Assembly (NCBI GenBank): GCA_023920165.1
Contig: CP089281.1
Coordinates: forward strand, 496,001-560,000
Source of the DNA: Curvularia clavata
Taxonomy: Eukaryota
Length of the DNA: 64,000 nt
Reading direction: 5' to 3'
Shown here piece after piece: positions 32,231 to 52,248 of the stretch; position 1 is the first letter of the stretch, and each line of letters starts with the position of its first letter. The position numbers were made by a program, and so were the translations under genes. A model generated the notes under the pieces. The model saw only the letters and a program-made list of their open reading frames with translations, was not told the origin of the DNA and did not search any database.

Positions 32231-33454
32231 TTATATTTGTCGGGCGGGCTTCACAGTACCGACGCATGCTCCAAACCCGACTCCCGCGCTGCCGTCACCG
32301 AGTACACCAATGTACCTTACTTCGTCTCCATCGTTGAGGTAGCGTAGTTCAGTTCCATCGCTCAGTTGGGTTGGTGCCTTGCCATTCTTCGTAAGTTCAA
32401 GCAAGCATCCGTGCTCATGCTTTTGTTCGCCCGATACTGTTCCGCTGGCGACCAAGTCTCCAGAGCGAAGCCCGCAACCGCCAATGGTATGGTGCGCTAG
32501 CATGTGTCTGAATGTCCAATACATCGTCTCGAAGCCGACCTTGCATGTTGTTGTCTGGACTCCGTTTCGGATGATTTGTCCTTCGAGTTGAATGCTGTAA
32601 TTTGTGCTCTTGGGGTCGTCCATAAAGGTAGCAACAGGCTCCATTCGCTCTGGTGCAGGCACTTCAAAGGGCTTCAACGCTTCTAGCGTTACGATCCAGG
32701 GTGCAATAGAAGTCATGAAGTTCTTTCCGTTGAAAGGGCCTAGGGGATTCATCTCTAGGCCTTGAATGTCTCTTGCACTCCAGTCGTTCAGCAGAACGAG
32801 GCCGAAGATGTGCTCATCGGCGTCTTTTGCATTAAGGATTGTGCCTGGCTCTACGGGCTTGCCAATGACCGCAGCGACTTCCATCTCGTAATCTAATCCT
32901 CGAGATGGACCAAATATGATTTTCTTTTCAGAAACGGTGTAGTCCTCGATGAACTGGCCCAAGGGTCTTGTGACTGATGCTCCTGATAGGGTGATGGAGG
33001 AACATCGACCCGCGTAACCCACTGGATACTTCTTAAAAGCAGGTGGGAATGCTCGGACTCCCATCACAGCTTCTCCCGCATTTAGAACATGGTTCGCTGA
33101 CGCGCTGTAATCTGTGAAGTCGCCAATGTGGAGTGGCAGATAAAGGCTCACATCATTAATGTTTTCCGCATAATTGCTGTGCAAATTGCTCTTGTAGGTT
33201 TCTTGAATTGCGGATCTCACTTTTGCGTGTACGTCTTTTCCGAGTGCGGCGAAGGTGTTCAAGGTGGGTTCGCGAAAGATAGAGGATAGCGGCGCTGGAA
33301 TTGCTTTGAAGGCATCGTGCTCAGTGATTTCAGCAAGAAATATGACCTGATCCTCAATACGTGTGACACACTGTGGACTTTTCCGCTTCGAAGAGCTTGC
33401 AATTCCGTAAGGAATGTTGTTAATGCTAAAATGCGAGGCGTAACTGTCTGCCAT
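32231..33454 (-). CDS. Fumarylacetoacetate hydrolase-family protein (divergent FahA paralog), single exon
   Basis: SHFSINNIPYGI, GDFTDY..H, PVGYAGRCSS, LDYEMEVA, LLNDWSARDIQ, PLGPFNGKNF, SGTVSG, GCLLE. Confidence 0.92.
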   Translation of the reverse strand: MADSYASHFSINNIPYGIASSSKRKSPQCVTRIEDQVIFLAEITEHDAFKAIPAPLSSIFREPTLNTFAALGKDVHAKVRSAIQETYKSNLHSNYAENINDVSLYLPLHIGDFTDYSASANHVLNAGEAVMGVRAFPPAFKKYPVGYAGRCSSITLSGASVTRPLGQFIEDYTVSEKKIIFGPSRGLDYEMEVAAVIGKPVEPGTILNAKDADEHIFGLVLLNDWSARDIQGLEMNPLGPFNGKNFMTSIAPWIVTLEALKPFEVPAPERMEPVATFMDDPKSTNYSIQLEGQIIRNGVQTTTCKVGFETMYWTFRHMLAHHTIGGCGLRSGDLVASGTVSGEQKHEHGCLLELTKNGKAPTQLSDGTELRYLNDGDEVRYIGVLGDGSAGVGFGACVGTVKPARQI

Positions 33455-34358
33455 TGTGATGGTAGGAACTGGTTATTGAAATGATTTTTGTGAGAGGAGT
33501 ATCTTGTAAACGCTACAATGCTCGATGTTTAGCAAAGCAATAACAGCTTAAGCTCACTGTGTCCCTCCTAGGTCTGAGACCGCAACCGTGATGGCTGTCA
33601 ATGTGTGGGGTCGTAAGTGGATATTTCGGAAGTTGTTCCTCCACATCGGGCCCTCCAGATAGAGTATCAATTGTAATCGGTATCCGAAATGACCGAGATA
33701 CATAACGCGGTATTCATATCGGCTATCTGGTGCTCTATGTGTGCCTGGTGTTAGTATAGTAGCAGGGCCTTTAAACGTCTTGAAGGACAGAGTAGCCCGT
33801 GATCTGTGTAAAGGGGCTTGGGATGTTTGTGTGCTGACCCTACCTTCATCTCAACGAGTCCAGAGCGCCTGAAATGTACTTGCTTATGACCTGGAAACAA
33901 CTGAACAGATGCATTGCCCAGTTAATGCTGTAGGCGGTACGACTCCTTGGGGCAGAGCTCGGTTTAGACAAGTGCACATGTTATCGATGGTTAGCAGGAC
34001 TGAAATGCGATCCGCAAGCGGTCGCCCACGAACCCCTCTTACGCATGACCCCACTAGAGAAGCCGCCTCATAGCTCAAACCACTGTTTTGAATTCCAATG
34101 CGCCATATGTGCAGCATGACCCCGCCCTAAAGGCGCGGGCCCTGCGCCGGCAGATGCAAGTGGTATAGCCGCTCATCAACGCGTCCCCCACATCGGAAGA
34201 CCATGGACGGATTCTTGGACGGTTTCTACATCTGCCCTTTTTTTTTGTTACAGTCTATCAATATCTGGTTTCCTTAAGTTTTTCATCTATGAGATCAAAT
34301 TCAAGCAAAACAACAACCTCACACATCACATTACCACATTTTGCGGCTATCCTTCAGC

Positions 34359-34919: not shown

Positions 34920-35194
34920 CGTATCTAAGAGGCACTGGCAGTGTTGTCTTCTTTGCGTACTACAAATAAAACATGTATTCTCTGCATGACCATTTTTATG
35001 GAAAGAAAGATAGTCACAACATGATTGCTCGCTCAATGATACGGCGAATGACACAAACTTTCAAGCACAAGCAAAACAAATCTCGAGTCGTGAGGCTCGT
35101 ACGAAGGCTCAGGAACGGAACTCGCCCCGACCACCTAGGTAGCGGGGCATTCCGCGACACTGCGCTAGACACACCAAATAGATGTAATACAATC

Positions 35195-35206
35195 CTCCAC
35201 ATTCCG
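35195..35206 (-). promoter_or_regulatory. Composite motif CGG-AAT-GTGGAG upstream of the CocE hydrolase
   Basis: Plus strand CTCCACATTCCG, ~137 nt before ATG 35343; repeated in other cluster promoters. Confidence 0.65.
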
Positions 35207-35342
35207 AGCCCGCCCCTCCAAACGTCGCATTTGGACGGCGGCGCGTCGTCGGCACCGGCGCTCACAGTGCGTTGCAACGGTTCTTTTATATCCAAATTGT
35301 CTGACAAAATACATTCCTTCATACTTCATCACCATTGACACC

Positions 35343-37243
35343 ATGTCTGAACAGTTGGAAATCAAAGATGCGCATACTGTCGACGAAACGTCGTTTCCCT
35401 ACATTTTTGAGCAGAACGCTGCGGTTCCGCTCAAGTCATCCTCCAAAGGAATTATCCGTTGCAATGTCTACCGCCCGAAATCAACCAAGGAGGGCACAAA
35501 ACTTCCCGTGTTGGTGACTTACGGACCATATGGAAAAGACATCCACTACAAAGAGTACGCGGGTCGCGTTTTACCACTGTATCCCTGGGACTGACACTTT
35601 ACAGTTTCCACGGAAAGTCATTCTCGGAAGTGAATTCTGAGCACCATTCTGATCACTCAGCATGGGAAACTCCCGACCCAGGCTTCTGGACGAAGCACGA
35701 CTATGCCATTGTGCGCGCGGATGAGCGTGGACTGGGACAATCACCAGGCTTCCTGGACACCATGTCCAGAGGAACCAGCGAGGCTTTCTTCGACGTCGTC
35801 GAGTGGGCAGCTGAGCAACCCTGGTCATCTGGAAAGGTTGGGTTGTTGGGCATCAGCTACTACGCTGGTTCGCAATGGCGTGTAGCGGCGCGAAGACCCA
35901 AAGGTCTAGCTGCTATAATACCGTGGGAGGGTATGAGTGATTATTACCGAGACAGATGCCGCCACGGAGGTATCTTGAGTAACAAGTTCATCGATTTCTG
36001 GTGGTGAGCATCGCTTTCCTCCTTTCCTAAAAAGCTCAACGCTCATGCTCTCAGGAACCGACAAGTCATCACAAACCAGTATGGTCGCCCAGGCCGTGCC
36101 GAGCGAAACTGGGGACCAGACACAGTCGACGGAAATCTATCCGAAGAAGTGCGCGCAAAGAACCGACAAGATCAGACTATTGATACCGCGAAATTCAAGT
36201 ATCGCGACGAGCTGTACTACGCGAGTAAAGAGTATGATATGAGCGACATTGAAGTGCCACTACTCTCAGTCGGCAACTGGGGCGGGATTCTGCTTCACCT
36301 TCGTGGCAACATCGAGGGCTATGTTCACGCCGGATCAGAGTTCAAATACCTTCGAATGATCACAGGCAGGCACGATCTGCCTTTTTACTACAAGGAAGAG
36401 GTCGAGATACAACGAAGCTTCCTTGACGCTTTCCTCAAGGGAGATGACCGAGTTGGCTGGTCCGTAAAGGGCAAGCTGCCTCCAGTCGACATGGTTCTCC
36501 GCAAGGGTGACGTAGGCTTCGATGATGCCGAGAAAGAGAAGGTGTACCAGAGGCGGACTGAGAACGAGTGGCCCATCGCCCGAACTCGTTACACAAAGTT
36601 CTATCTTACTCCATCTCAGAGTCTGACTCAAGTCCAACCCATTGTCAGCAGACCGCAAAAGCTCACATACGAGGCGCTGGGTACGCTGGACGACCCTAGG
36701 CGACTTCAGTTTACCACGGCTCCGTTCGAAGAAGAGACGGAGATTACGGGACACATTGTTGCCCACTTGAACGTCTCGCTCTCAGCTCATGCCATGTACG
36801 ACACACCCAGCGACATTGACCTGTTCCTCACTCTACGCTACATTTCGCCCGAGGGCAAGGAAGTCTACTACACCGGTACCGCCGGCGACCCTATTCCCCT
36901 CGCCAAGGGTTGGTTGCGCGTCAGTCTCCGCAAGACGAACCCCAATCATCCCAAGCACCGGGAGTACCTGCCCTGGAGAGACTACTTCAGCACCGACGTG
37001 CAGCCCGTAGTTCCCGGCGACGTCTATGCCGTTGACGTCGAGGTCTGGCCGACCAACGTTATTGTGGAGAAGGGCGGCAAGATTGTGTTTGAAGTCAGCA
37101 GCGGCGATACACAGGGCAGTGGTATCTTCCAGCATAACCATCCTGAGGATAGGAGTAAAGAGAAGTTTGCTGGGTGGAACCATATCAATTTCAGTGAGAA
37201 GGCGGTTAATTATGTTACGCTGCCGATTGTGCCACCGAAATAG
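35343..37243 (+). CDS. CocE/NonD family (peptidase S15-like) serine ester/amide hydrolase; exons 35343-35554, 35605-36003, 36055-37243
   Basis: PVLVTYGPYGKD, RADERGLGQSPG, WSSGKVGLLGISYYAG (GxSYxG nucleophile elbow), LHLRGN, GRHDLPFY and a C-terminal jelly-roll (EITGH, GWLRVSLR, VEVWPT). Two ~50-nt canonical introns. Confidence 0.92.
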
Positions 37244-37633
37244 AGGACGGGTAAGATGTTTGTAGATAGGAAACGAGATGATATTTACAATGTAACTATG
37301 TATTGTAAGAACGACTATTTTTGAACTTTCACAGCTCTTGTCTAGCATTGATCTGTTTTAATCTAGTGCAATCTCATGAAGGAGTAATACGTGCTTATCT
37401 GGTGAAAGTTCTGCCAGTAAGGATGGTATATTGCTGTGCGCCCGCTTATGAATTTACGCAGTATCCCACTGCAAGGATGGGTATGACAACAAGCTTCCTT
37501 AACCGAAACAATAAATGGCAACGTCGACTAGGGTTGAGTGAAATGGAATCAAAATAAACGTGATTGATGAAGATACATATATGTCGAACCAAAAGAAAAA
37601 GAATGCCACGGAAATAAAGTAAATTCCAACTCG

Positions 37634-38497
37634 TCAAGTCCACCTGCCAATCTTGAACTGGCTATTGCACATGTTGACTAACTCCCAGTCTTCAGCACCG
37701 AGTTCGCACTCGTCGGTTTCCTTCTTGCTGCCATCGACAGCACCAGCAACAAAGCATGCGGCCATGTAGTGGTCGTCGGTAGCATGTGCGTCCCTGAACA
37801 TGGGGTGCTTCATCAGTCTTGTAATACCACGGGTGAGACTGCCCTTCTTTGCGCCCTTTCTGCAGCAGCGAATGAAAACGTCCTCGACGCACTGGCGGAA
37901 CTCGAGCATGGGAGCTTCGGGCGGGTATGGCTGGGCAAAGTTGTCCGAGTACCTGAGCATTTGGGCCCAGTGGTTGCGGTAAAGGTTGTGGACGGCGCCT
38001 CCGGTTCCGATGATGAGGTATCCCTCGTCGCGGAACTTGGAGAGGATGTTACCGACGCGGGCGTGCAGGTGTGGGTCAAACCGAGAGTTCATGCTGATAA
38101 TGGTGGTGGGCGGGCATTTCTCTGGGAACATTCTAACGAGAATGAGATATGTGTCGTGGATCCAGTCAAACGACTCGTTGGGTCGGGCATCGATGGCCTT
38201 TTCCCGCAGAGCGGCAATGCATTTCTTTCCGGTCTCGAGGTCCGGGACAAGCTCGTAGTCTTTGTATTTGCGAGGGTGGACATAGGCGACGGGAGATTTG
38301 GCGGGCTTGGGGTTCATGGCAACGTCAATGCGGTTTACGCCACGAGCGTCCCAGTGGGCGCCCATCATGATGACGCCTTTGAAGCCATGTGCGAGGGCTT
38401 CGTCGCCACAGGCCTTCCAGTATGTGGCGGATTTGGACTCTTCGCCAAGCATCATGGTCGAGCCATGGGAGAAGAAGTAGACTGGGGGTATCGCCAT
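37634..38497 (-). CDS. LigB-superfamily (class III) extradiol ring-cleavage dioxygenase, DODA/YgiD-like, 287 aa
   Basis: FFSHGS, GAHW, DWIHD, LIIGTGGAVHNL, AHATDDHY. Start taken as MAIPPVY (38497); the ORF track extends upstream to 38725. Confidence 0.9.
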   Translation of the reverse strand: MAIPPVYFFSHGSTMMLGEESKSATYWKACGDEALAHGFKGVIMMGAHWDARGVNRIDVAMNPKPAKSPVAYVHPRKYKDYELVPDLETGKKCIAALREKAIDARPNESFDWIHDTYLILVRMFPEKCPPTTIISMNSRFDPHLHARVGNILSKFRDEGYLIIGTGGAVHNLYRNHWAQMLRYSDNFAQPYPPEAPMLEFRQCVEDVFIRCCRKGAKKGSLTRGITRLMKHPMFRDAHATDDHYMAACFVAGAVDGSKKETDECELGAEDWELVNMCNSQFKIGRWT

Positions 38498-38729
38498 GGC
38501 TGTGAAGATGGTCTGTGTATACTGCAGCAAGAGAGAGGGGTGAATGTGGGTATTTGGATGGGTGCAGATTGCAGTATTCAAGGATGGCTCTGGCAATGGC
38601 CGTAGTGCTGGTCGTAGGGCATCGACGGTAGAGCAACACAAGTGCCGTTCGCAATGCGGATGCTTTGGAAGCTTATCCCGTCTTAGTCGATGGTCTCTGT
38701 GTGGCCCGGCGGTTTCCCATGGCAAAAGT

Positions 38730-38741
38730 CGTAATGTGGGG
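38730..38741 (+). promoter_or_regulatory. One-mismatch motif CGT-AAT-GTGGGG in the divergent LigB/TF promoter
   Basis: Plus strand CGTAATGTGGGG. Confidence 0.45.
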
Positions 38742-39081
38742 GAGGGTTGGAAGAGATGGATATGGGCCCCATGGCGCTAACCGCAAAGCTCATGTGCGTC
38801 TTAGATTGTGCATATTGTTGGCTAGGGGCAGCGGGCAGAAGCCGGAAAAGGACCGCGTGGCATTGCAAGCGTGGATGGGGTGTGACCAAGGAGAGGATGC
38901 CAAGCAGGCTCTGCCATGTAGCCGCGAGTTAATGTGAAACTAGGAGAGCCCGGGCCCGCCGCGGCTCGGCATGCTCACATGGATGCAGACGCCGACTCCG
39001 CATTCTCTCCCCACACACCAACTTTATCTCCCTCCACTTCCCAGGCCCGATGCTGTCCCTCACCCGATAGCAACTCGCTCC

Positions 39082-42000
39082 ATGATGCAGGCCAGCCCAC
39101 CTCAACCAAAGCCGCTGCCCGCTCATGCCGAAATCGACGCCGAGCACGCCCGCCTGTTCCAGTGCAGCACGTGCAAGCGCTCCTTCACCCGGGCAGATCA
39201 TCTCACCAGACACGTGAGAGCGCGTAAGTCTTCGTCCCACTCGTCCCCGGACGCGAGAAAGGCAAGGTTTCTACTGGTAATACCCTCAAGTCGTCCTCCG
39301 CCTATTACTCGCAACCGACTCGGACGCCTCACCACCTATGCCCTTGCACATTCCACGTCCTTTTAGTTGTAGTTATGCCTCAAAGGTACCCGCCTGTTTT
39401 GTTCCCGTACCAACAAGATAGCTGTCTTGTTGCCTGCTACATGCATGACTTCAGACATCTTTTGGACCCCTGGCTGACCCAGCTCCAACAGACACAAAGT
39501 CCAAGCCGTATATTTGCCCAGTGTGCTCCAAGGGCTTTGCTCGCATGTAAGTACTGCTTAGTATGGCTGTTTCCATCCTCCTCTCGTCGCCCTTGCCAGA
39601 CTCGTCTGACATGCTGCAGTGACTTGCTTAAGCGACATGTAGCAAATCACGATACAGAACCCGCCAGCAAGCGACAGAAGCGCGAAATCTCCCGCGACAC
39701 CAGAGTGGTCCAAGCCTGCGAGGCTTGTTCGCAAAGCCATCTCCGATGCGAAGACGAGAAGCCATGCAGTCGGTGCAAAAAGAAGAAGATTCCCTGCAGG
39801 GTGCCGGATGCGATTCCTGGAGATGACAATGAGGTCCATGAAATTGATGCTGTGCATGCAGCACAGGACTTGCTCGATTTGTCCAACGGCTTCGACTACC
39901 CCTCATCGTTGCCGGGTCAGGGCGGAAGTGCGAATCCATCGGCCTCTGCAACTTCACAGACACCAGAACCTTTTCATGGTTCTGCTGGGCGCAGAGCATC
40001 CGAGGCGAACGCACCCGTCATAAACGCCATGCAACCGCCGCCGCCCAACATTGCTAACGGCCTTGTTCCCATGGACCATCAGTTCGAAGGCCAGGACCCT
40101 ACATCGTCCATGGCCTTTTTTGATAACTCGATCCAGCCCTTTGGCCATACGCCTGGTCAAAATTCTTTCCTGCCAGACTACTTTCGAAACATGCCGCCAT
40201 TCGAGTCTTTCCTTTCTGGACAGGCTACCCCACGTGGCATACTGGACCTCAGTTTTGACATTGACGTTGGTCTCACTGACCTTGATCTTGGATTACTTGA
40301 TCAATACAACTTTCAAGTTCCTTTTGCTGCAGACACGCCATCTACAGATGCTCAAGGTATGGAAAATCATAACCCAGAAACCGACACAGCACCAGGAAGA
40401 GCAGAAGCTTTCAAGCAGAGCGTATGGCGCTACCTTCCTCAGAGCTCTAGAAACCCTGTGGCAGAGCAAGTAAACTTGGCCTTTTCCGATACCGAAAGAG
40501 ACAGCCACAGGCGGTCGCACATCGCACACCGCCGCGTCATATCAGAAAAGTAAGCATGCATCCTATAGAATGACTGGTTCTGTTGCTAATGCTACGTCAC
40601 CTTTGTCCACAGACTTTCTCGCGTCAGTCGTGACCAATTGATGGCCTTGGTCCTGGGAACATGCACTCCGGAGAATGTCAAACGAATCGCATTAGCCTTT
40701 CCCAGTATAGAGTTACTCGATGGGCTGATTCAATACTTTCTCTCTTCCCCATCCCTAGACGCGCCAATGTGGTTCCATCTCCCAACATTCTCTCCCTCGA
40801 AACTGAACCCAGAATTGCTTGCAAGTATAGCGTCAGCTGGAGCCGCGACTATTCCCGATGCATCATTACGAAAGCTTGGATATGCCCTTCACGAGGCATC
40901 TAGAATGGGCCAATCTAGAACTTTCGAGGACGACAACACAGCCATAAGAGACCTTCAACATCTTCAGACCTTCCTTCTTCAGCTCGGAGTGGGTATGTGG
41001 AGCGGTATCAGCAGAAAAATGGAGATTGCAGAAAGCTTTGCCCAGCCGCTGATAACTATGCTTCGGCGGGGCGGCCGCTTCCGGCGGTCGACATGGAAGG
41101 AAATCCGCCCGGAGCCAGACGAGCAAGGATCAGCTTTGGAAAGCAAATGGTTGAGTTGGGTAAACCAAGAGTCGTTCCTTCGCCTCGTCTATCGCGCCTT
41201 TGAGTTTGATAGGCAATCCTCCATGGCATTGCTCAAGCCACCATTGATATCTTATGCAGAGATGCAGCTTCCTTTACCAAGCTCCAACGCTTTATGGCAA
41301 GCTAAATCAGCAACCAGTTGGAAAGCGGCATACTTGAACATGGCGCCAACGGCAACAAAGAAACCCTCGCCATTCGAATGCTTTTTTAATCTGGAACATC
41401 TTGCTCACCATGAATATGCTAGTCAAGTTTTCCTCTATATGATATGGGGCGCGATTTGGGAATATCGCCAGATGTGCACGGTAGCGTCCAAGGCACCATC
41501 CGGATCAAACAACAGCCTCATACTCTCTTCGCGCTATCAGGATCTCATGAAACAGCTCGAGGACTTTAGGCTCAGCTGTCCGCCCACGAACAAGAGTGTT
41601 GAGATAATACTAGAAATCATGCTAGTCCATCTCAATGCGCCTTTGGACGAAATCCAGCTTTTTGCCGGCATCGAAGGACAGGAAGAGGCGCGCAGCGCAT
41701 ACCTTGGCCTGCGAGACTGGGCAAACACTGCGTCAGCACGTCAAGCGCTGTGGCACGCCGGCCAGGTATTACGCGCAGCTGAAGTGGTGCCAAAAGCCTT
41801 GTTGACCAACTTCAACGCCATTGCCGTCTATCATGCTGGGCTAATTCTATGGTGTTATGGATTTCTTAGGCGATCCGCTGCACTGGAATCAACACAGGTC
41901 GATACGACAGTCATACTTAATGGAGACGACTCCCTGAGCGCTCGCAAGTTCATCACATTAGATCGCGGTATCCCATCGATAAGAGCCTATGGGTCGCATA

Positions 42001-42146
42001 CACCGACGCAGTTGAATGATGTCTGTGGGGTTATGGATGGATTAATACATCTCCTTCGGGCACGTCACGATGCTTCAGAGCCGTCACCGCCACTGGTGGG
42101 GAACTTGGTCCAACTTCTGGAAGGTCTACGCTCTGCCATCAAATGA
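39082..42146 (+). CDS. Transcription factor with two C2H2 fingers, a Zn(II)2Cys6 cluster and a fungal-specific TF domain; exons 39082-39223, 39492-39546, 39620-40549, 40613-42146 (start may be 38971 or 38983)
   Basis: Spliced FQCSTCKRSFTRADHLTRHVRAH-TKSKP-YICPVCSKGFARIDLLKRHVANH, then ACEACSQSHLRCEDEKPCSRCKKKKIPC. C-terminal WFHLPTF, WVNQES..RL, LPLP...LWQA..A..W, ARQALWHAGQ. Confidence 0.92.
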
Positions 42147-42548
42147 CGACCTTAGTAATGCGAAAATGTTCAAGGTCCACCGACGCTGACAATCAGTCAA
42201 ACGCCGCTCGGCAGATACTGTTGATTCTTGTGAAGCTACTTGCTTGTTTTGGCAACATGCCCCCTTATCTCGCTGTATGCGCACAAATTTGAAGTGCATG
42301 CGCGTCCCTTGACCCCAACAACAGGCATACTTGTCGCGTCACATCACCATGCGTATGGCCAACGCTCAGATCCATCCAATCGGCCCGAGTGATGGTACAT
42401 ATACTAAGACTTTTGCGCAGGGTCACGAAGCTGCTCGTCCACTGTGGCGGCGGCTATATGCTGCGTTTTTGGCCGGCAGATCTAGACAGAGCTGAATCCC
42501 CGCCGTTTTAAGCCATATTGAGAATGGCCTTACTCACAGACATTCCAT

Positions 42549-42560
42549 CTCCACTTTCCG
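42549..42560 (-). promoter_or_regulatory. Composite motif CGG-AAA-GTGGAG upstream of the MFS transporter
   Basis: Plus strand CTCCACTTTCCG, ~260 nt before ATG 42820. Confidence 0.6.
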
Positions 42561-42819
42561 ACTTTACCCCAGACTGAGGGGACAGACTGGGGTAAACCCG
42601 AGGTGGATGCATCCAATGGATAGTCGTGAGGCAAGCCATCGCTGTTCTTATTGGTTGCAGACATGCAACTGCACGCGGACGCGGACGAGGGTTGGCAGTG
42701 TTCCTTCAAAAGCCGTGCAGTCTATATAGATTGAATAAGCTACCTAGTTCATAATCAACGATCACTGTCGGTTTTCTGTCCTGTCATCTTTTTTGTTTTG
42801 ATCGACATCGGCAGCCGCA

Positions 42820-44670
42820 ATGACATCTCTGAGTGCGGCGTTTAAGCTTTCCAAAGAGGAGGTCCGCAATGCCAGGCCCCCTGGAACAGCTACACTAGTT
42901 GGTGAGGCACGATAACAAAAATGCTCAGGATTGCAATAAGCTAACAACTGTTTCCCTCACCAGAACATCTCGAATTGACGGGAGTACAGACGAACAGAGA
43001 TGAAATTCGTCTGGTACCCCAGCCTGCGGCAGACCCGGCAGACCCGCTCAACCTGCCCATGTGGCGAAAGCTGGCAGTGCTGGCTGTCATGTCTATTCAC
43101 CCCTTTGTAGTGAACTTCACATCTTCATCGATAACGAGTGCTTTCCCGGTATATGCGTCGACGCCAGTACTGGGCCTCCCACCACAACCCTTTTCGAAAC
43201 TGAACTATTTCGCCGCCGTCAATATCCTCATGCTAGGAGCATCCAACCTGTGGTGGGTGCCCTTGTCCAACACATTTGGGCGCCGCCCAGTGGTGCTCGT
43301 GAGCCTGTTAATTCTGGTTTTCTCGAGCATGTGGGCAGGGTTGGCGACGAACTTTGGTAGTCTCTTAGCAGCGCGTACATTTATGGGCATTGGAGGAGGA
43401 CCTGCCGATGCTGTCAGCCCCGAGGTGATTGGCGAGGTATTCTTCGTTCATCAGCGCGGACGTGCAATGGTGTGTAGTTTAAGTGTCGATTTCGCAGAAG
43501 TAGGGTACTAACATGCTACGCGTAGGCTATCTACACTTTCTTTTTGGCTTTCGGGTCTCTTGTTGGTGGCTGTGTCGGTGGATACATTGTCGCATCCATG
43601 GGCCTCTCCTGGATACACTGGATGAACGTCCTCCTTTCCGCCATTACCTTCGTTCTCTGCCTCTTATTTCAAGCCGAAACACTGTACAACCGCCCACAAA
43701 CTTCAGTTGCGCCCGATTACGCCGTTGACAACAAGCAAACGGTAGACACCAAAGAGAGCGTTGTCGCCACTGGCACTGTGTCGCCAGCCTCATTCCCTCC
43801 ATACTCACATCTCCGCTCTCTGAGACTTATCTCTTATCAGTCAGGCATCGGTAAGAAGTTCTTAGCCCCGTACAAGACGCTTAGACTGCCTGGAGTATGG
43901 CTGGTGTCGGGCTGGTATGCTGGGCTCGTTGGACTTGTTGTGAGTAAAGATCGCTGCAAGAAACCATGGAAAGACGCTTGGCTGACTGATTTGATTGCAG
44001 GTTACCTCTTCAACAACTGGTCCTCAGTTTGTCGCTGCTCCACCATACCTCTGGGGTAAAGACGTTGGATTGGTTAACGCGGGCGGTCTCATCGGTGCTT
44101 TCCTTGGCTGCGTAAGTATTTTGACCCAGTATCTGCTTCCGCTCATCATCTAACGATCCTTCTTTCTATCTTTAGATTTATACTTACCTACTCACCGACT
44201 TCACCACCAAACGACTTGCAAAAAAGGACCTACACGGCTTTTCTGAGCCTGAATCCCGTCTCGTGACCGCCCTCCCTGCACTCTTCGCCGCCACAATCGG
44301 CTCCCTAATCTTCGGCTTTATCGCCCAGAACCCTTCGCCAAAGGGATGGGTAGGCCTCGAATTCGGATTCGGCCTCATCGCTTTTGGCCTCATGCAGGCA
44401 CCCTCTGTAGGCTTCAACTACATCATCGAGGCGTACGGTGCGCTTGGCGGAGACTGCTTCGTCGCCATTACTACGTCGAGGGCAATTGTCAGCTTTGCAT
44501 GGACCTTTTTCGTCGGAGATTGGTCAATGCACAGGGGCCCAGCTGAACCTTTTGGTATCTTTGCATTGCTCATGGGCTTGTTTGGCTTAATGACCATTCC
44601 AATGCTCATGTGGGGTAAGCGGTTGAGGATCTGGACGGCAAAGTGGGTCCCAGAGGGAAAGATGAATTAA
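42820..44670 (+). CDS. Major facilitator superfamily transporter; exons 42820-42901, 42964-43469, 43526-43939, 44001-44111, 44176-44670
   Basis: LVPQP..DPADPLN.P.WRK, motif A SNTFGRRPV, EVFFVHQRGRAM, ETLYNR, EPESRL and ~12 hydrophobic segments. Four canonical introns keep the frame. Confidence 0.9.
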
Positions 44671-44971
44671 GGTTCTCACGTCAGATGTCTTGGATTATGG
44701 GGCATGATTCTGGTACTTGTGGGGAAGAAGATGTAATCAAATCACGAACACATGCTCATTTAAAACCTTTATGAAGACTGAGTCCACCGTGTTCTTTGCT
44801 GCTGCTTAGGCCAACGCATTGTAAGGTATATGACTTTATAGTACAAAAGTGAAAGCTTTATATACAGTCAATATCTCCTTTTTTTCATCGAAGAAAACCG
44901 CGATTGCTCGATTGATTGATATGGCTATAGACAACACAAATGGACATGGTAATATATCAAAGGGAACATAT

Positions 44972-46526
44972 CTAGATAAACGCCATTTTCCTCAAGCCTG
45001 CTCTAATCCCAAAGAACAGCGTTGCCCCAATGCACGTCAACAGCGGAATACCGTACACGCCCAAGCCGACAAGGATACCCTGCTCAAAATATCCAATCGC
45101 AATCGACTCTTTCCGCTTCTTCTCCTTGATCTCCTGCGCGGCTCTGCTAAGCAACTCCGTCGCTGCCCTCGCCGAGTCCTTACCACCCAGCACCTTAGCC
45201 AGCGCCATTTGCGACGCAGGGGCAGTGATGTAAGCGGGAGACAGGCGGGTGAAATGCTGCTTTGTATACCTTTTCTCTACGTCAAAGGGTTGAGATGAGG
45301 GTGCCGCGGGGCCAAGCAGGAGGCGCAGTGGGATGTGGTTGGCAAATGAGGCGTCTGCAACAACGAACTGCGAGAGATACTTGTCTGTTTCTGGGGTACC
45401 GAAGTGATATCCTGCTAGCAGTGTCTCTTGAGGATCGAGATCTTCTTCTACAAGGCTGATGGCGTGTTCGAGGGAGGTGATGGATGAGACACAGAAAACA
45501 GGTTGCTGTGATTTTGGTGGCAGACTGAGGAGGTTTGAGAGGTCGACAATGGCACCGTTGTCGCCTTGCGTGACGACGTTGAGTTTCCAAGCTTTGCTTG
45601 AGCAGAGAGTCTGGAAAGTGGAGGATACGCGGGAGGAACGCTGAGTTTCTTTGGGATTGGTGGTGCCGTTGGAGACGCCACCAGAGCCGGCGAGGAAGCG
45701 GAAGGAGTGCTTGAGGACGTGCTCGAGGAAGTCTTTTTTGATGAATTCGTTGACGAGGACGATGTCAGGGGCGTAGGGAGATGTGCCACCGAAGGCGAAG
45801 CGTGCTGTGACGAGTTGTTCGGCGGCGGATGCTAGATCGGCTGTGCGGTCTACGATGGCGACTACTTTGCCTTGGGGTGACACGTGCTGTGAGTATGTCG
45901 GCTGTCTGATTTGTGTTTCTTGAAGCACTTGTAGGCATGCTGAGAGGGATTCTGATGGGGGGTCTGAGGAGATGGCGAGAAAGGTGTCTGATTCCAGGGC
46001 TTCAGCGAGCAGCTTGCGGAGTAAAGATGGAAGAGCACGGAGATTGTTTTCAAGCTGTGGTATTGTTAGTTGCGTGTGTGGATAGATAGTTGACGTTGAA
46101 GCTGACCTTCAGAGCCACACAAGCGCCTGCTGCTACAGCTGCGCTCAAAGGCGAGATGACTGAGAAGAAAGGCGTGTGGTCTTTTCGAGGCTCAATGTAT
46201 GCAACGCCCCAAGGAACTCTCCGATCACCAGCGTTTTTGCCCTTTGTAATTTGGTATTCGTCCTCTAGCTCTTTTGTAACATCAATGGACGCATAGTGCT
46301 CCTTGACCAGATCCAGCCCAATTGCGACCTCGGTAGTTGCTTCCTCGTCTGTTACATGCGTGTCTTGCTTGAGAGCATCTCGGATGGAACTACTATTATT
46401 TCGCAGCGTGTCATGCAGCGCCTTGAGCTGTTTCTGGCGGAAGAAGGCATTGTGGCAGCGCGCTGAGAGGGCCGTCGCCTGGAGACTGTCCAGCGCGGCT
46501 TCGGGGGTGATTGGCGACGACGACAT
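44972..46526 (-). CDS. Aldehyde dehydrogenase-like protein (class 3/fatty-ALDH-like fold) lacking catalytic residues, with a C-terminal TM anchor, 500 aa; exons 46526-46107 and 46054-44972
   Basis: FRQKQLKALH, RRVPWGVAYI, PLSAAVAAGACVALK, AIVDRTADLASAA, ARFAFGGTSPYAPDIVLV. Intron AAG|gtcagc...actaac...acag|CTT. Confidence 0.85.
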
Positions 46527-46701
46527 GATGGTAACTCCGAGACAGGCAACTAAGAAAACGACAACAGAAAGATGATTCAAGAGTGGGGAGAAAGCGACAA
46601 TCTCTACTTTGTAAGCTACAGGAAGTTCTCGGATCGCTTCGGTATTATTTCGAGCCCAAATGACCGGCAATGTGGTGAGACGATGGACAGGGAGAAGCTC
46701 C

Positions 46702-46713
46702 CCCCACATTCCG
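46702..46713 (-). promoter_or_regulatory. Composite motif CGG-AAT-GTGGGG in the divergent ALDH-like/small-protein promoter
   Basis: Plus strand CCCCACATTCCG, near the middle of the 413-nt intergenic region. Confidence 0.65.
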
Positions 46714-46939
46714 AGGATGAACAACGCCCCACCCCAGACTGACCCTGTCTCTCCCGTCCCACCCGCCGCCGCGGTGTCTCCGCGTTTGCAAGCGTCGGAA
46801 AGTGTTCTATTGTAGTTCCGACCTTGTTGCTTACGATTCCCAGACCTGTTACTTTCGCTGACTGCAACCGTCCTGTTTCTGCGGCCGTATCCCAACTATC
46901 CCACGAGAAACGGGACGAAAGAAGCGCACTGCAATCAAG

Positions 46940-47356
46940 ATGTCAGTAACAACGACAGCAAACCCGATTCACTACACTCTCGAAGCGACGCTTGCAGACT
47001 ACGATCTTCACCACACCGACGACCATGATACCAGTTTGAACTCGCATCCCAATCCGGCCCCAAATGCGCAGAATCCAAGTCACTGGCCAGCGGACCATCG
47101 TCGCGTGCCTGCATACCGCCCAATTAACAGGGAGCTGGACCAAAGCGAGAGGAGGGTGTACTTGAACGGAATCGAGCAAGCCTTTGTAGGCGTCATGTTT
47201 ACGGGTGTATTCCTCGAATCGGTGAGTTCTCTGAAGCACATAGAGTAAGTAGGTTGTGAAGAGGCTAATTAGCGATTACAGGCTGTATCCAAGATTTGGC
47301 GAAATTCCTTGGGACGCGTATGGAATGTTGGATACAAGATCGGTGGAGAGTGGTGA
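46940..47356 (+). CDS. Small hypothetical protein, 118 aa, with one hydrophobic segment; exons 46940-47221 and 47282-47356
   Basis: ATG in aagATGt context; intron gtgagt...gctaat...acag. Spliced C-terminus WPADHRRVPAYRPINRELDQSERRVY...AFVGVMFTGVFLES-AVSKIWRNSLGRVWNVGYKIGGEW*. Confidence 0.75.
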
Positions 47357-47772
47357 AAAGGCCGTCTTCGTGGGTGCTTTGTTTGTCAGATTCTGCTTTA
47401 GTCTTCTTGTTTCAATTCCAATTTCAGCTAAAGGAGAATATCGCTTTTTATTCTGCTTTACGGCTCATGTGTTCCAAGCGTACTACATTCGGGATGAAAA
47501 TGGCAACCTTCTCAGTCTGGCGAGATGATTGCTGACTGCCTGTATCTACACCTCTTCATTATTCGAATGTGTTCACACATGCCTCGTTGGTATGCTGACA
47601 TGCATGGTAATCTCATGGTGTGTTACACCGGATGCAGCATCGATATGGTAGTCACCATACGTCCAATTATCCGATCCTCTTAAAGTCCATTCACACGCGA
47701 TATCGACCACACTCTGGAGCGCGTGGGAACCGAACAGGCGATTTCTGGAGTCAGCTGCTGCAAGCCCACTTG

Positions 47773-47784
47773 CGGGAAGTGGAG
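47773..47784 (+). promoter_or_regulatory. Composite motif CGG-GAA-GTGGAG upstream of the monooxygenase-ADC fusion
   Basis: Plus strand CGGGAAGTGGAG, ~175 nt before ATG 47959. Confidence 0.6.
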
Positions 47785-47958
47785 GTGGGCTGCTTTTCGC
47801 CTACCGAATCTTGGTGCAGTTGACTGCCTTGGTATCAAAACCAGAGCAGCCAGATCCGCGGCTGTCGTTCTGCATATTACGCTTCCTTCTTACTCTTCAA
47901 CACTTGCAGTGTTTCATGCCACTTCTCCATTCTTTGCAAAGCACCTTTACTCATCACC

Positions 47959-50167
47959 ATGGGCTTCACAAACGGCACTAACGGAGTTAACGGGCACGAC
48001 ACCAACTCAGAGCGCCCCCTCAACATCACAATATGTGGTGCGGGTATTGGTGGCCTAAGTGCCGCAATCTTCCTCCGACAAAGAGGCCACAAGGTTACTC
48101 TCCTCGAGGCCTCGCGCTTTGCCAACGAACTAGGTGCAGCTGTGCATCTCGCACCCAATGCCAATGGCTTGCTGCGGCGCATGGGCTTGATCCCCGAAGC
48201 CAAGGGAGCTGTGGAGTGTGAGAGGTTGACGCAGCTGCTTCCCAATGGCAAACAGTTGTTCAGCGTAGACTTGAAGCGGGAAGCGGGACGGTGGCAGCAT
48301 CCCTGGCAACTTGCACATCGTGTCAGCCTGCACAGCGAATTGAAGAGATTGGCGACCTGTGAGGAGGGAGCGGGGACGCCAGCAGTGCTGAAGCTCAAGT
48401 CAAAGGTCCTCGACGTCGATCCCAAGGAGGGCGTGGTAGTTTTGGAGAGTGGAGAGAAGATCCAGAGCGACATTGTTGTCGGGGCAGACGGCGTGCATTC
48501 CAAGACTCGTCTGCGTCTTCCAGGAGCAGAGAATATTAAGGTCTTTGGCAGCGGCAAGAGTGCCTTTCGTTTTTTGATTCCAAGGCAGAGGGCGTTCGAT
48601 GAGCCCGACACACGCAAGTTTGCGGACAAGGAGGGCCATCTGGTCATGATCTTTGCACGCGACAGGAGAGTTGTTGTATATCCTACGTCGGATAATACGC
48701 TGCTCAACTTTATTTGTATTCACCCGACTTCGGAAAGCCAGATCAACCCTCAGGAGCCAGAAAGCAGTGGTTGGCAGAACCAAGGTAACCTCGACAAGAT
48801 GCTGGAAGTGTACAAGGACTTCGAGCCGGCGGTCCTGAAGCTGCTGAGTATGGCGGATGAAGAGACGCTTAAAGTGTGGGAGTTGTTGGATATGGATCAG
48901 CTGCCGACTTGGACACATGAGAAGCTGGTTCTCATTGGAGACGCCGCACATCCATTTACGCCACGTAAGTCAATCCTCTTTTCCTAACAAAACGTGTGAA
49001 GTTCTCAAACTCATCATCCCTCTAGATCAAGGTCAAGGTGCTGGTCAAGCCATCGAAGATGCCGCCTCTCTCGCCGTGATGCTACCCCTGGGCGTGCCTC
49101 TTGAATCCATTCCCGCACGTCTCAAACTCTACGAGAAATGCCGATACGAACGAGCCAGTGCCATTCAAGAGTACTCCCGGATAGCAGGCAAAGATCTCGG
49201 CTCCGGTCCACCCATCGACACATACAAATTCACAGACTACAACTTCGGTCACGATGAATGGGACCACTCAAATCAAATGCTGCGAAAATGGGAATGGGAA
49301 AACAACAAGAATCTCCTCTGGAGAATGCCCACTGCCTTTGGCCCCATGCCCGGTCCCCGACAAGACTTCCACGGCCGACCAAGAGACGGCTCGAGCGCTA
49401 CCTTCAAAACTGCCAGCATTAAGTTTAAGACCAGCAGGACCGTCTTGGAGAATCTGTTGCCAAGTGAAGAGCTGAAATTCGCTGCTGCAGACACCACCGC
49501 CTACGCCACTTTTTCCGCAACCCAACTCGACAATCTTGAGTGGCTGGGCGGCCGCGGCTATAATCACTTTGGTCTCTACATCCACGGGATTCAGTACACG
49601 AAGGCCAACGGTGAAACAGTCGTAGGCACCTACCTCCCTGTTCTCTTCGAGAATCTCGCCGACCCCATTCTAAGTGGACGCGACGAACTCGGGTTCCCCA
49701 AGGTTTATGCCGAGCTAGACGTTTCCCACTCCGACGACAGGTGTACCCTTGAAGCAGGTTGGATGTCGTCGAAATTCTGTCGCATGGTGCTGTCAGGTCT
49801 ACAGCCTTCCTCTGCCGCAGAGCAAGCTGCAGCAGCGCCATTGCCTCGCGATGACGGTCTCATTTTCCACAAGTACATTCCTGCCACGGGCAGTCTGGCT
49901 AGCAAGCAGCCGTCTCAGCCCGATGTTGAGTACACTGCTTTCCTGCCTAGCGTCGAGGACGCACAGAGTGTAGAGAAGAAGGTAGAGTCGACGATGGTTG
50001 CGTCTGGGGCGGAAATTGCGTTTGACACATTGGACTGGAAGGCTCTGCCGACGCTGCATCACATTGTGAACAGGTTGCAGGAGGTGCCGGTGTATGGTGT
50101 TGTGGAGGCAAAGGTGGTACGGGGGACGGGCGTGAGCGATGTTAGGGTGGTACAGAGGCTGGGTTGA
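47959..50167 (+). CDS. Class A FAD-dependent aromatic monooxygenase (salicylate-hydroxylase-like) fused to a C-terminal acetoacetate-decarboxylase-like domain, 715 aa; exons 47959-48964 and 49026-50167
   Basis: GAGIGGL, VVGADGVHS and LIGDAAHPFTP-HQGQGAGQAIEDA across a 61-nt intron. C-terminal domain with LEWLGGRGY, YLPVLFEN, PILSGRDELGFPK, LPTLHHIV. Confidence 0.92.
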
Positions 50168-51000: not shown

Positions 51001-52248
51001 CTATCCGCTCGCCGCACCCAATCCGTCGCAGAGTTTTTTTCTCCACTGTCCGCACACATCCTCAAACCCATCCAGGACATCAGCACAAGCGCGCTTGGCC
51101 TCTCTTTCTTTCAATCGGCGGTCCCAGTCCCCATGCTCAATGTACTCCTGCGCCTCCTTTGTCCGTTCGTTGTCGCGTTTCCAATCTTGTAGCTGCTCTT
51201 TGCTGACTTTGAGTCGCCGCGTGGCGTTTACTGTCGTTTGCCGAGACATGTGGAGCGTATCACTTACGTTTGCGAGATGTTGTAGCAGCTCGCGGCTCGT
51301 GTGTGTGAGGTGGGAGAGCTCTACGAGCGGCTCAGTGGAGCAATGGGGAAGCAGATCCAGGGTTAGTTGTATGATTGGGAGAAGTTCTTCGATTGTATCG
51401 AGGTCGGGCACAATGGGTCGTGGGCCCGAGAAGGAGGCAGCTAGTGATGTGAGAGTTCTGGATTGATGGGTCAAATGTGTCGTCAGAGCATCGTGAGCAG
51501 TTTTGAGCCTATTACTTGCAGTCAGCAGAGATTGCAAGGTTGTGAGGAATCCCCGAGCCTACCTCGTTGATCCGTTCTCTATGGCAATCTGGCTGCCCAA
51601 GTCTCGTAGTTGCTCCGTTACCCTCTTGACAACCTCGTCTGACGGACTTCCATTCTCCTCCATGCCCCGCCGTGCTAGACTCTCAATAGCAGCCATTCTT
51701 GATTCGAGCGCCGGTGAGATGCCTTCGTTCTCCAGGTCCGAGTCGCCGCCATAGTCTGAGCCATCATACAGCGACCGTTGCCTGTTGTGCTTTTTCGACT
51801 TCGCAGCGGACGACGGGCTCAGTCCAGTTGGGGAAGAGTCTTGCATGGCCACCCCACTATCGCGCACACCGTTGATGCTAGCCATACTGTCCACGCCATA
51901 CGAGCCGTCATGCTCTATGGCTGTACCGATACCCGCCAGTTCGTCTTGCGACTCGTCCATGTCACCATATTCGCCATCCATGGCCTCTTCCTCGTCGTCG
52001 TCCCATACCTCGCCTAGCTCGTCAGCCAGGTTTCCGAGGCCGTTGCCGTCTCCCCCGCCATCGAAGTGGTGTGCCGGACTATCCTCAAAGTCGTGCGACG
52101 AGCGCGGTGTTATGGGTGAGTAGCCGGAAGAGCGTCGGTTGAAGGATTGCCGCCTTGAAGCAGTGTTGTGGGACATGTCCAGGCTCGAGGGGTGTCGACG
52201 GTGCGAGGATAGAGGACGGTGAGTCGGTGTGTCCGGTGGAGAGGACAT
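51001..52248 (-). CDS. Hypothetical protein with an acidic low-complexity N-terminus and helical C-terminus; exons 52248-51563 and 51508-51001
   Basis: Intron AG|gtaggc...gctgac...atag|G joins LRDLGSQIAIENGST-RLKTAH. C-terminal IEHGDWDRRLKEREA..C.DV..GFE.VC. Confidence 0.8.

Follow-up and report, generated by a model that had tools for sequence, protein, structure and literature searches.

The 64-kb stretch of Curvularia clavata DNA analyzed here (contig CP089281.1, positions 496,001 to 560,000; hereafter the window, to whose numbering all coordinates refer) carries a cluster of nine genes. They encode a fumarylacetoacetase-type hydrolase (FAH), a small cupin, an S15-type hydrolase, a LigB-type dioxygenase, a transcriptional regulator, an MFS transporter, an aldehyde-dehydrogenase-like protein (ALDH), a small protein of 118 amino acids (aa), and an FAD monooxygenase joined to an acetoacetate-decarboxylase-like domain (ADC). 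The gene map was built from Pfam scans and the reading of open reading frames (ORFs), with the ninth gene added from RNA contigs, and it defines the extent of this conserved cluster. Promoters of the cluster contain a composite motif, CGG-N3-GTGGRG (CGGNNNGTGGRG), which the initial annotation had related to the order of the zinc-binding domains in the regulator. The motif is almost certainly a real, conserved, and cluster-specific cis-element, and the regulator encoded within the cluster, a RegA-like protein with two C2H2 fingers and a Zn2Cys6 domain, is probably the protein that reads it.

Copies of the motif in the window

Scanning both strands of the window with the pattern of the initial annotation, CGGNNNGTGGRG, returned five exact matches (Table 1). 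Four of them lie in cluster promoters, exactly where they had been reported together with a one-mismatch copy in the divergent promoter between the LigB-type gene and the regulator; the fifth, absent from the earlier list, is outside the cluster in coding DNA, and its spacer, ACA, does not fit RAW. The promoter DNA of the cluster sums to 3905 bp, in agreement with the roughly 4 kb of intergenic DNA originally assumed. We refer to the five promoter sites as class I. They are found 137 to 260 bp upstream of the ATG codons of cluster genes, as judged from the mapped gene starts. The LigB/regulator site is 233 bp from the LigB ATG (38497); the regulator RNA, which appears to begin at 39021, starts about 280 bp downstream of this site. 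Site 3, in the divergent promoter of the ALDH and small genes, is 176 bp from the ALDH ATG (46526) and 227 bp from the small-gene ATG (46940). Four sequencing runs were compared with the window for strain differences; among the 40 of 373 differences listed, a single-nucleotide polymorphism (38733 A>G) changes the degenerate R of the LigB/regulator site, and a one-base deletion at 46700 shortens the C-run beside site 3 and leaves its core intact.

Table 1. Genes of the cluster and motif sites in the window. Core denotes the 12-bp pattern within a 14-bp site; PWM, position weight matrix score in bits; the last column gives the lineages with a site in the orthologous promoter.
Feature	Positions	Strand	Context or distance	Evidence or sequence	Lineages
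FAH	32231..33454	-		Pfam FAA_hydrolase + FAA_hydrolase_N; syntenic in 5 other lineages	
Small cupin, 186 aa	34359..34919	+		Pfam Cupin_2; syntenic	
S15/CocE-NonD-type hydrolase	35343..37243	+	introns	Pfam Peptidase_S15 + PepX_C; syntenic	
LigB-type extradiol dioxygenase (YgiD/4,5-DOPA dioxygenase family)	37634..38497	-		Pfam LigB	
Regulator	39085..42146	+	exons 39085-39223, 39492-39546, 39620-40549, 40613-42146		
MFS transporter	42820..44670	+		Pfam MFS_1; introns in RNA contigs	
ALDH	44972..46526	-	intron 46055-46106	weak Pfam Aldedh below curated cutoff; RNA joint; syntenic	
Small conserved gene, 118 aa	46940..47356	+	intron 47221-47280	GT..AG joint in RNA contigs X8, X12	
FAD monooxygenase::ADC	47959..50167	+	intron 48965-49025	Pfam FAD_binding_3 + ADC	
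Class I site 1	35194..35207	-	137 bp upstream of S15/CocE-type hydrolase ATG 35343	TCGGAATGTGGAGG; PWM 23.9	7/7
Site 1, exact core	35195-35206	-		CGGNNNGTGGRG match	
Class I LigB/regulator site, with CGT	38729..38742	+	LigB/regulator divergent promoter	TCGTAATGTGGGGG; PWM 22.2	12/12
LigB/regulator site, one-mismatch core	38730-38741	+		CGTAATGTGGGG	
Class I site 2	42548..42561	-	260 bp upstream of MFS transporter ATG 42820	TCGGAAAGTGGAGA; PWM 21.1	13/15
Site 2, exact core	42549-42560	-		CGGNNNGTGGRG match	
Class I site 3	46701..46714	-	ALDH/small-gene divergent promoter	TCGGAATGTGGGGG; PWM 23.1	6/7 (ALDH)
Site 3, exact core	46702-46713	-		CGGNNNGTGGRG match	
Class I site 4	47772..47785	+	175 bp upstream of monooxygenase::ADC ATG 47959	GCGGGAAGTGGAGG; PWM 17.5	6/6 (opposite orientation in L020)
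Site 4, exact core	47773-47784	+		CGGNNNGTGGRG match	
Class II site	33639..33649	-	185 bp upstream of FAH ATG 33454	CCGATGTGGAG	
Class II site	34186..34196	-	163 bp upstream of cupin ATG 34359	CCGATGTGGGG	
Fifth exact match	51041-51052	-	outside the cluster, within long ORF 51001-51558(-) reading ..CGQWRK..	CGGACAGTGGAG	

The five exact matches compare with a mean of 1.00 in 100 shuffles of the window, one of which reached 5. When the spacer was restricted to RAW and up to one mismatch was allowed, eight matches were found against 2.26 expected, a number that none of the 100 shuffles attained. The hexamer GTGGRG alone is common, with 91 matches against 73 expected. In a PWM scan of the 64 kb, the top five places went to the promoter sites (17.5 to 23.9 bits), and the next match scored 12.4. 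We discarded the size of a loose 12-mer family (copies differing from a seed at no more than two positions) as a statistic because about 66% of 1,076 dinucleotide shuffles of the promoters gave families of at least five loci. A tighter unbiased measure considered every 12-mer and 14-mer in the promoter set and added up the mismatches of its best 4 or 5 copies. Under each of the four settings, the CGG-N3-GTGGRG motif ranked first among the families; it was matched by 64/287 shuffles (12-mers, 4 copies), 13/287 (12-mers, 5 copies), 0/287 (14-mers, 4 copies), and 0/287 (14-mers, 5 copies). The gain of the longer word is due to one conserved base on each side, a T before CGG and a G after GRG. Support from the window alone is thus moderate. 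A second repeated word, CGACGCTTGCAR, occurs at six loci (35216, 38863, 46786, 46862, 46986, and 47898) and was dismissed as not significant, since 81 of the 1,076 shuffles (∼7.5%) have a best family of six or more loci.

Conservation of the motif in related loci

Metagenome contigs scanned with the C-terminal exon of the regulator yielded 44 related loci, about 24 of which are syntenic with the window by tblastn map and which dereplicate to approximately 15 other lineages. The syntenic copies retain 53 to 85% protein identity in the regulator exon and 66 to 75% DNA identity in the alignable parts. The initial annotation had named conservation in orthologous promoters as a test that could refute it, and the motif proved to be conserved there: the site recurs in the same promoter, in the same orientation, and at a similar distance from the gene. 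Sites with no more than one mismatch are present in 44 of the 47 available orthologous promoters, a count that, the sites being inherited and not independent, shows purifying selection and specificity and does not stand for 44 separate events. The ALDH promoter of L020 has no site within one mismatch, and the remaining two promoters are MFS promoters considered below.

Motif counts were taken over 17 nonredundant syntenic loci (167 kb, window excluded), divided into cluster promoters (31.1 kb) and other DNA (135.9 kb); the background consisted of the rest of the window and the 136 kb of nonpromoter DNA of the related loci. The pattern CGGNNNGTGGRG occurs 24 times in the promoters and 3 times in the other DNA, and the refined form CGKRANGTGGRG occurs 36 times and 0 times, respectively. 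The motif moves along with its genes in rearranged clusters. Relocation or inversion of the S15 and MFS genes in L020 has left each of them with its upstream site; in L022/L023, the inverted MFS gene is preceded by a site of the CGT form. In an unbiased search of 14-mers, the motif ranked first among the families in L012, L011, L022, and L008, with matching shuffles in 0/40, 0/40, 1/40, and 1/40, respectively, and in the alignment of MFS promoters from 10 lineages (A4), the motif is the sole fully conserved block. The motif is accordingly confined to co-clustered promoters, which include that of the regulator itself, and is conserved with the cluster, as is expected of the site of a pathway regulon.

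Refinement of the motif and linkage of its halves

The 44 sites define a 14-bp motif, T-CG(G/T)-R-A-W-GTGG-R-G-(G/a), beyond which the flanks hold about 0 bits of information. Conservation extends to positions that were not used in the selection of sites, with T at position 0 in 36/44, and R, A, and W in 42/44 each. The spacers are AAT (22), GAT (10), AAA (4), GAA (3), and others (4). The hexamer is followed by G or A in 39 of the 44 sites.

The two halves of the motif are linked, as seen in conditional counts that are free of selection bias. Promoter occurrences of TCGKRAW are followed by GTGGRG in 33 of 62 cases, against 0 of 160 elsewhere. Reciprocally, of the 61 copies of RAWGTGGRG in promoters, 39 have NCG(G/T) directly before them, and of the 18 copies elsewhere, none does. 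When the gap in CGG-Nk-GTGGRG was varied from k = 0 to 10, enrichment appeared at k = 3 alone (28 in promoters versus 4 elsewhere), which bears out the fixed N3 spacing of the initial annotation. No second CGG or CCG was found at a fixed spacing: for k = 0 to 10 on either side of the hexamer, only CGG-N3 and CCG-N2 are enriched.

Domain structure of the regulator

The regulator comprises C2H2 finger 1 (RADHLTR), a TKSKP linker, C2H2 finger 2 (RIDLLKR), a basic linker of 22 aa, a Zn2Cys6 domain, and a Fungal_trans domain. Its introns have GTAAGT donors and CAG acceptors in the DNA, and the spliced product reads ..FQCSTCKRSFTRADHLTRHVRAHTKSKPYICPVCSKGFARIDLLKRHVANH, 22 aa, CEACSQSHLRCEDEKPCSRCKKKKIPC... 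The joints 39223>39492, 39546>39620, and 40549>40613 are present in RNA contigs X8 and X12, from two runs and two studies, and are absent from the DNA runs X3 and X7. The orthologue P0002 (Bipolaris maydis) is already spliced, with Pfam zf-C2H2 at residues 25 to 47 and 53 to 75, Zn_clus at 96 to 129, and Fungal_trans at 440 to 648; Fungal_trans (PF04082) was detected with E values of 6e-15 in the window regulator and 1e-13 in P0002. The order C2H2-C2H2-Zn2Cys6 with helices RADHLTR and RIDLLKR, on which the initial annotation relied, is therefore established by the RNA joints, the splice sites, and the Pfam domains of P0002. The two C2H2 fingers, side by side and N-terminal to a single Zn2Cys6 domain, and the C-terminal PF04082 domain give the protein the architecture of the C2H2-C2H2-Zn2Cys6 dual-specificity regulators (Cmr1/Pig1/RegA-like).

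The only database protein that is 100% identical, P0001, has the NCBI label Curvularia clavata. In its gene model, intron 1 (39224-39491) is retained, so that the second histidine of finger 1 is lost; the correct splice of this intron follows from the RNA contig joints and P0002. Both RNA contigs start near 39021, which favors the ATG at 39085, contig ends being weak evidence. The database label of the family is "C6 transcription factor RegA," and our literature searches turned up no functional study of RegA.

The recognition helices (RxDHLxR and RxDLLKR) are invariant in all orthologous loci and in 88/88 family proteins with a complete DNA-binding domain (DBD). The linker between finger 2 and the Zn2Cys6 domain measures 20 to 23 aa in 72 of these 88 proteins, and its sequence is basic and conserved in Pleosporales (..KRQKREI..RVVQA). 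The DBD is similar to Zif268/EGR1 and to ADR1 (2adr, E = 3.7e-12). An AlphaFold2 (AF2) model shows the two fingers, a low-confidence linker, and the zinc cluster. In this single-chain model, which is weak evidence on dimerization, residues 128 to 294 have pLDDT values below 50, and the zinc cluster is followed only by a 12-residue low-confidence helix (142 to 153); the lack of a long helix at this place is compatible with a monomer.

Proposed reading of the motif

Our preferred reading, which we hold with modest confidence, is that the motif serves as the upstream activating site of a pathway-specific regulon, with one molecule of the cluster regulator on each asymmetric 14-bp site. The regulator would bind as a monomer and activate the adjoining gene, and the site in its own promoter would entail autoregulation. 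In the Zif268-type code, a finger with R/H/R at the contact positions reads G-R-G and one with R/L/R reads G-T-G, and fingers run antiparallel to the G-rich strand, giving 5′-GTG-GRG-3′. Finger 1 (R-1, D2, H3, R6) would thus read GRG and finger 2 (R-1, D2, L3, R6) would read GTG. This assignment of the fingers, already made in the initial annotation, is well grounded in the invariant helices, in the similarity to ADR1 and Zif268, and in the Adr1 consensus TTGGRG. The basic 22-aa linker may then cross the A/T-rich RAW spacer, and the Zn2Cys6 domain would read TCG(G/T) on the 5′ side; the location of this domain C-terminal to finger 2 would put it 5′ of GTG, at the position occupied by TCGK. Such a two-module reading, with fingers on GTGGRG and the zinc cluster on TCGK, is plausible, and we lean toward it slightly.

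Besides the shared inheritance of the sites, several observations weigh against this interpretation. Among the orthologous MFS promoters, that of L005 has no site and that of L017 has only a two-mismatch copy at the expected place. In the alignment of S15 promoters (A1), the site lies in a conserved block, but other conserved blocks are found between the motif and a TATA-like element. Two sites overlap RNA: contigs contiguous with LigB cross the site at 38730 and reach about 38881, and site 2 lies within the transcribed 3′ region of the regulator, where RNA contigs extend to at least 42693. The sites at 38730 and 42549 are therefore in transcribed DNA, at least under the sampled conditions, by contigs that cannot fix the ends of transcripts. 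The third base of the upstream triplet also varies, with CGT instead of CGG in 15/44 sites and as the conserved form in 10/12 LigB/regulator promoters, which is unexpected for a classical Zn2Cys6 half-site.

Alternative layouts of the two modules count on the same side. Class I sites are missing from the FAH and cupin promoters, which instead have class II sites, CCGATGTGGRG (represented by CCCGATGTGGAGG), with an inverted CGG and N2 spacing. Class II has two matches in the window against 0.28 expected and recurs in the FAH/cupin intergenic DNA of 6 lineages and in the MFS promoters of L013 and L015; the more general CCG-N2-GTGGRG occurs 12 times in promoters and 3 times elsewhere. Paralogous loci, whose regulators are 28 to 39% identical in the C-terminal exon and share the same finger residues, show a third layout, GTGGRG-CCG (GTGGAGCCGA), with 11 matches against 1.8 expected, all of them intergenic; the orthologous loci have a single GTGGRG-CCG match, in coding DNA. 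In the paralogous layout, the CCG stands beside the finger-1 triplet and not the finger-2 triplet. The occurrence of the same two modules in three layouts supports two separable reading modules and, at the same time, indicates that domain order alone does not fix their arrangement. The proposal that domain order places CGG 5′ of GTG consequently holds for class I but fails to account for CGT in 15/44 sites, for the inversion in class II, and for the GTGGRG-CCG layout. The invariance of the finger residues across the paralogues further means that a test of protein-DNA covariation yields nothing.

The paralogous matches, GTGGRG-CCG(A), are carried by L025, L028, L031, L034, L035, L037, and L041 (e.g., L037:3958, L035:994, and L041:10569), and 7 of the 11 are then followed by RAN. 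The paralogous clusters contain relatives of the LigB, S15, and monooxygenase genes with a distant RegA-like regulator, and L034, L035, and L037 share TTTAAGGGAWGTGGAGGCGG.

Alternative explanations

One alternative, which we consider unlikely, is that the cluster regulator binds through its two fingers and the basic linker alone, with TCGK left unread and the Zn2Cys6 domain having a structural or other function. The CGT substitution, the RAW-GTGGRG-G shared between class I and class II, and the conservation and basic character of the linker all fit this explanation. In Cmr1p, deletions of the finger and of the zinc cluster differ in effect, with no synergistic cooperation shown, according to a passage of Shelest 2017 (PMC5415576) citing Tsuji 2000. 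Against such binding, T, C, and G occupy positions 0 to 2 in 36/44, 43/44, and 44/44 sites (C and G being inflated by site selection), sites anchored on RAWGTGGRG have NCG(G/T) upstream in promoters only, and class II and paralogous sites retain CCG/CGG, the classical Zn2Cys6 target. Since G and T share a major-groove carbonyl, G/T degeneracy would moreover be chemically plausible for a Lys/Arg contact.

It is similarly improbable that two separate proteins sit side by side, a Zn2Cys6 protein on TCGG and a C2H2 protein on GTGGRG, or that the reader is a regulator encoded elsewhere or a paralogue. Many paralogues have identical finger residues, three layouts of the TCGG and GTGGRG modules would be easily accounted for by separate binders, and the FAH and cupin promoters differ in layout from the other cluster promoters. 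Yet class I sites show strict conservation of both the N3 spacing and the spacer sequence, the site is present in the regulator's own promoter in 12/12 lineages, and a regulator gene accompanies every site-bearing syntenic locus, which makes a cluster-encoded reader the simplest choice.

That the sites are ordinary CreA/Mig1 boxes (SYGGRG), or those of another general two-finger factor, with CGG incidental, is very unlikely. Both GTGGAG and GTGGGG fit SYGGRG, the hexamer is abundant in the window, a catabolic cluster is a plausible target of CreA, and extra GGGG boxes occur near the sites of some promoters. Sites retrieved from TCGKRAW..GGRG alone, by contrast, have GT at positions 7 and 8 in 33/33 cases and never GC, CC, or CT; seven more upstream positions are conserved, N3 is fixed, none of the 18 nonpromoter copies of RAWGTGGRG is preceded by CGK, and the full motif is absent from the 136 kb of other DNA. 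A plain CreA box, which the initial annotation had named as the refuting case, is excluded as the whole explanation, although competition by CreA for the hexamer could add another level of control. The probability that the promoter copies are a chance, post hoc pattern is negligible: shuffles of the window and its promoters leave some room for it, but the related loci refute it, with the motif recurring at the corresponding promoters of up to 12 other lineages, a 35-fold enrichment in the held-out loci, and unbiased rediscovery in four other lineages.

Comparison with known systems

Gal4-type Zn2Cys6 sites are CGG-Nx-CCG pairs bound by dimers, with monomeric exceptions such as AlcR. The (T)CGG triplet is common to these and to the motif described here, but the motif has no second triplet, tolerates CGT, and has a C2H2 site as its partner half, unlike a dimer site. 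CreA/Mig1 boxes likewise contain GTGGRG as a subset of SYGGRG, and both are sites for Zif268-like finger pairs; the motif differs from these boxes in always starting with GT, in its fixed TCGK-RAW extension, and in its confinement to the cluster. Adr1 of Saccharomyces cerevisiae has a two-finger domain like that of the regulator, with helices that we take to be Rx(D/E)HLxR and RxDLLxR, nearly as in the cluster regulator. Adr1 binds paired inverted sites (UAS1) and lacks a Zn2Cys6 domain, whereas the cluster sites are single and asymmetric and have a conserved 7-bp 5′ extension. TTGGRG differs from GTGGRG at the first base only, with the same R degeneracy; Table 2 of PMC3897899 lists TTGGRG as the Adr1 consensus and SYGGGG as that of Mig1.

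The closest known architecture is that of Cmr1p/Pig1p, which have the same N-terminal C2H2-C2H2-Zn2Cys6 arrangement followed by Fungal_trans; the likeness is one of architecture and offsets. A passage on the Alternaria Cmr1 homologues places their fingers at residues 2 to 24 and 30 to 52 and the GAL4 domain from residue 73 (PMC10789848), and on these positions the two fingers of both Alternaria Cmr1 and P0002 (fingers at 25 and 53, zinc cluster from 96 onward) are offset by 28 residues, and finger 2 and the zinc cluster by 43. Cmr1 and Pig1 are regulators of melanin synthesis (Colletotrichum, Magnaporthe, Alternaria, and Cochliobolus), while the regulator in the window is labeled RegA and, by Pfam, its neighbors are catabolic-type enzymes and not polyketide synthase or reductase genes of melanin formation. 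Regulators combining C2H2 and Zn2Cys6 domains are present in the majority of filamentous fungi, with 73% of 191 genomes having them, and their mode of DNA recognition is called "obscure," as stated in passages of Shelest 2017 (PMC5415576). Literature searches, whose coverage stopped short of whole papers and supplements and could have missed one, returned no published DNA motif for the Cmr1-type dual-specificity class.

This class includes the melanin and virulence regulators Cmr1 and Pig1, and the locus provides a testable hypothesis for it, in which the two halves of a 14-bp site are separable and held at a fixed spacing, variants occur naturally, and the target promoters are defined. More tentatively, one polypeptide may use both zinc modules on the 14-bp site under a family syntax that is switchable (TCGK-N3-GTGGRG, CCG-N2-GTGGRG, and GTGGRG-CCG), and the motif may be the first defined element for the class. 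If so, paralogues would gain distinct targets through the placement and orientation of the zinc-cluster half-site and not through finger specificity, and the layout rule could predict the sites of the Cmr1/Pig1 melanin regulators.

Other features of the promoters

Several further features were observed in the promoters. Site 4 lies within a near-palindrome, CCACTT-N5-AAGTGG (47764-47790), that is not common to the other sites. An imperfect extra copy of the motif, GTCGGAAAGTGT, is present at 46794-46805 (+) in the ALDH/small-gene promoter and overlaps one member of the CGACGCTTGCAR family. TGGGAAGTGGAG (39032-39043, -) lies shortly after the point at which the regulator RNA seems to begin; a resembling sequence, (T/A)GGRAAGTGGAG, is kept at the same place in L004, L003, L009, and L016, and TGGGAAGTGGAG could represent a weak second site or a constraint on the 5′ untranslated region (UTR). 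In most lineages, a conserved palindrome, CCCC(A/G)TGGGG, lies 4 to 10 bp beside the MFS-promoter site (columns ∼160 to 180 of A4), its copy in the window being degenerate (∼42562-42575), and S15 promoters have a conserved GAGGGGC box beside the site. The palindrome and the box may belong to another factor as CreA- or STRE-like sites. RNA contigs run unbroken from LigB to 384 bp upstream of the LigB ATG (37335-38881), and in run X8, a contig passes from the regulator through the intergenic DNA into the MFS gene (40613-42899). These overlaps suggest long UTRs, read-through, or overlapping transcripts.

Predicted functions of the cluster genes

The LigB-type protein has its nearest solved relatives in PDB 2pw6 (E = 1e-12) and 8in2 (E = 2e-12), among the YgiD/4,5-DOPA dioxygenases. 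The closest solved relative of the monooxygenase is the decarboxylative vanillate 1-hydroxylase 8x38 (E = 1.6e-38), and further ones include 6-hydroxynicotinate monooxygenase and salicylate hydroxylases. From the enzyme content and these solved relatives, we would guess that the cluster probably breaks down an aromatic acid, with extradiol (DOPA-dioxygenase-like) ring cleavage. Extradiol cleavage was stated not to have been described in fungi as of 2021, in a passage of PMC10512348. The Aspergillus niger TanR/TanX system matched in the literature searches and was set aside because it concerns different genes.

The FAD and ADC parts are covered by one RNA contig from which the intron has been removed, which indicates a fusion protein, and the same fusion is seen in related loci. 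Exon 1 of the small 118-aa gene gave no match in the Pfam scan. The gene adjoins ALDH in eight loci by tblastn (L004, L008, L011, L012, L022/L023, L020, L025, and L028), and this adjacency is kept even in the rearranged L020. The C-terminal end of the ALDH-like protein is hydrophobic (..GILVGLGVYGIPLLTCIGATLFFGI..; 44972-45080, -) and looks like a membrane anchor.

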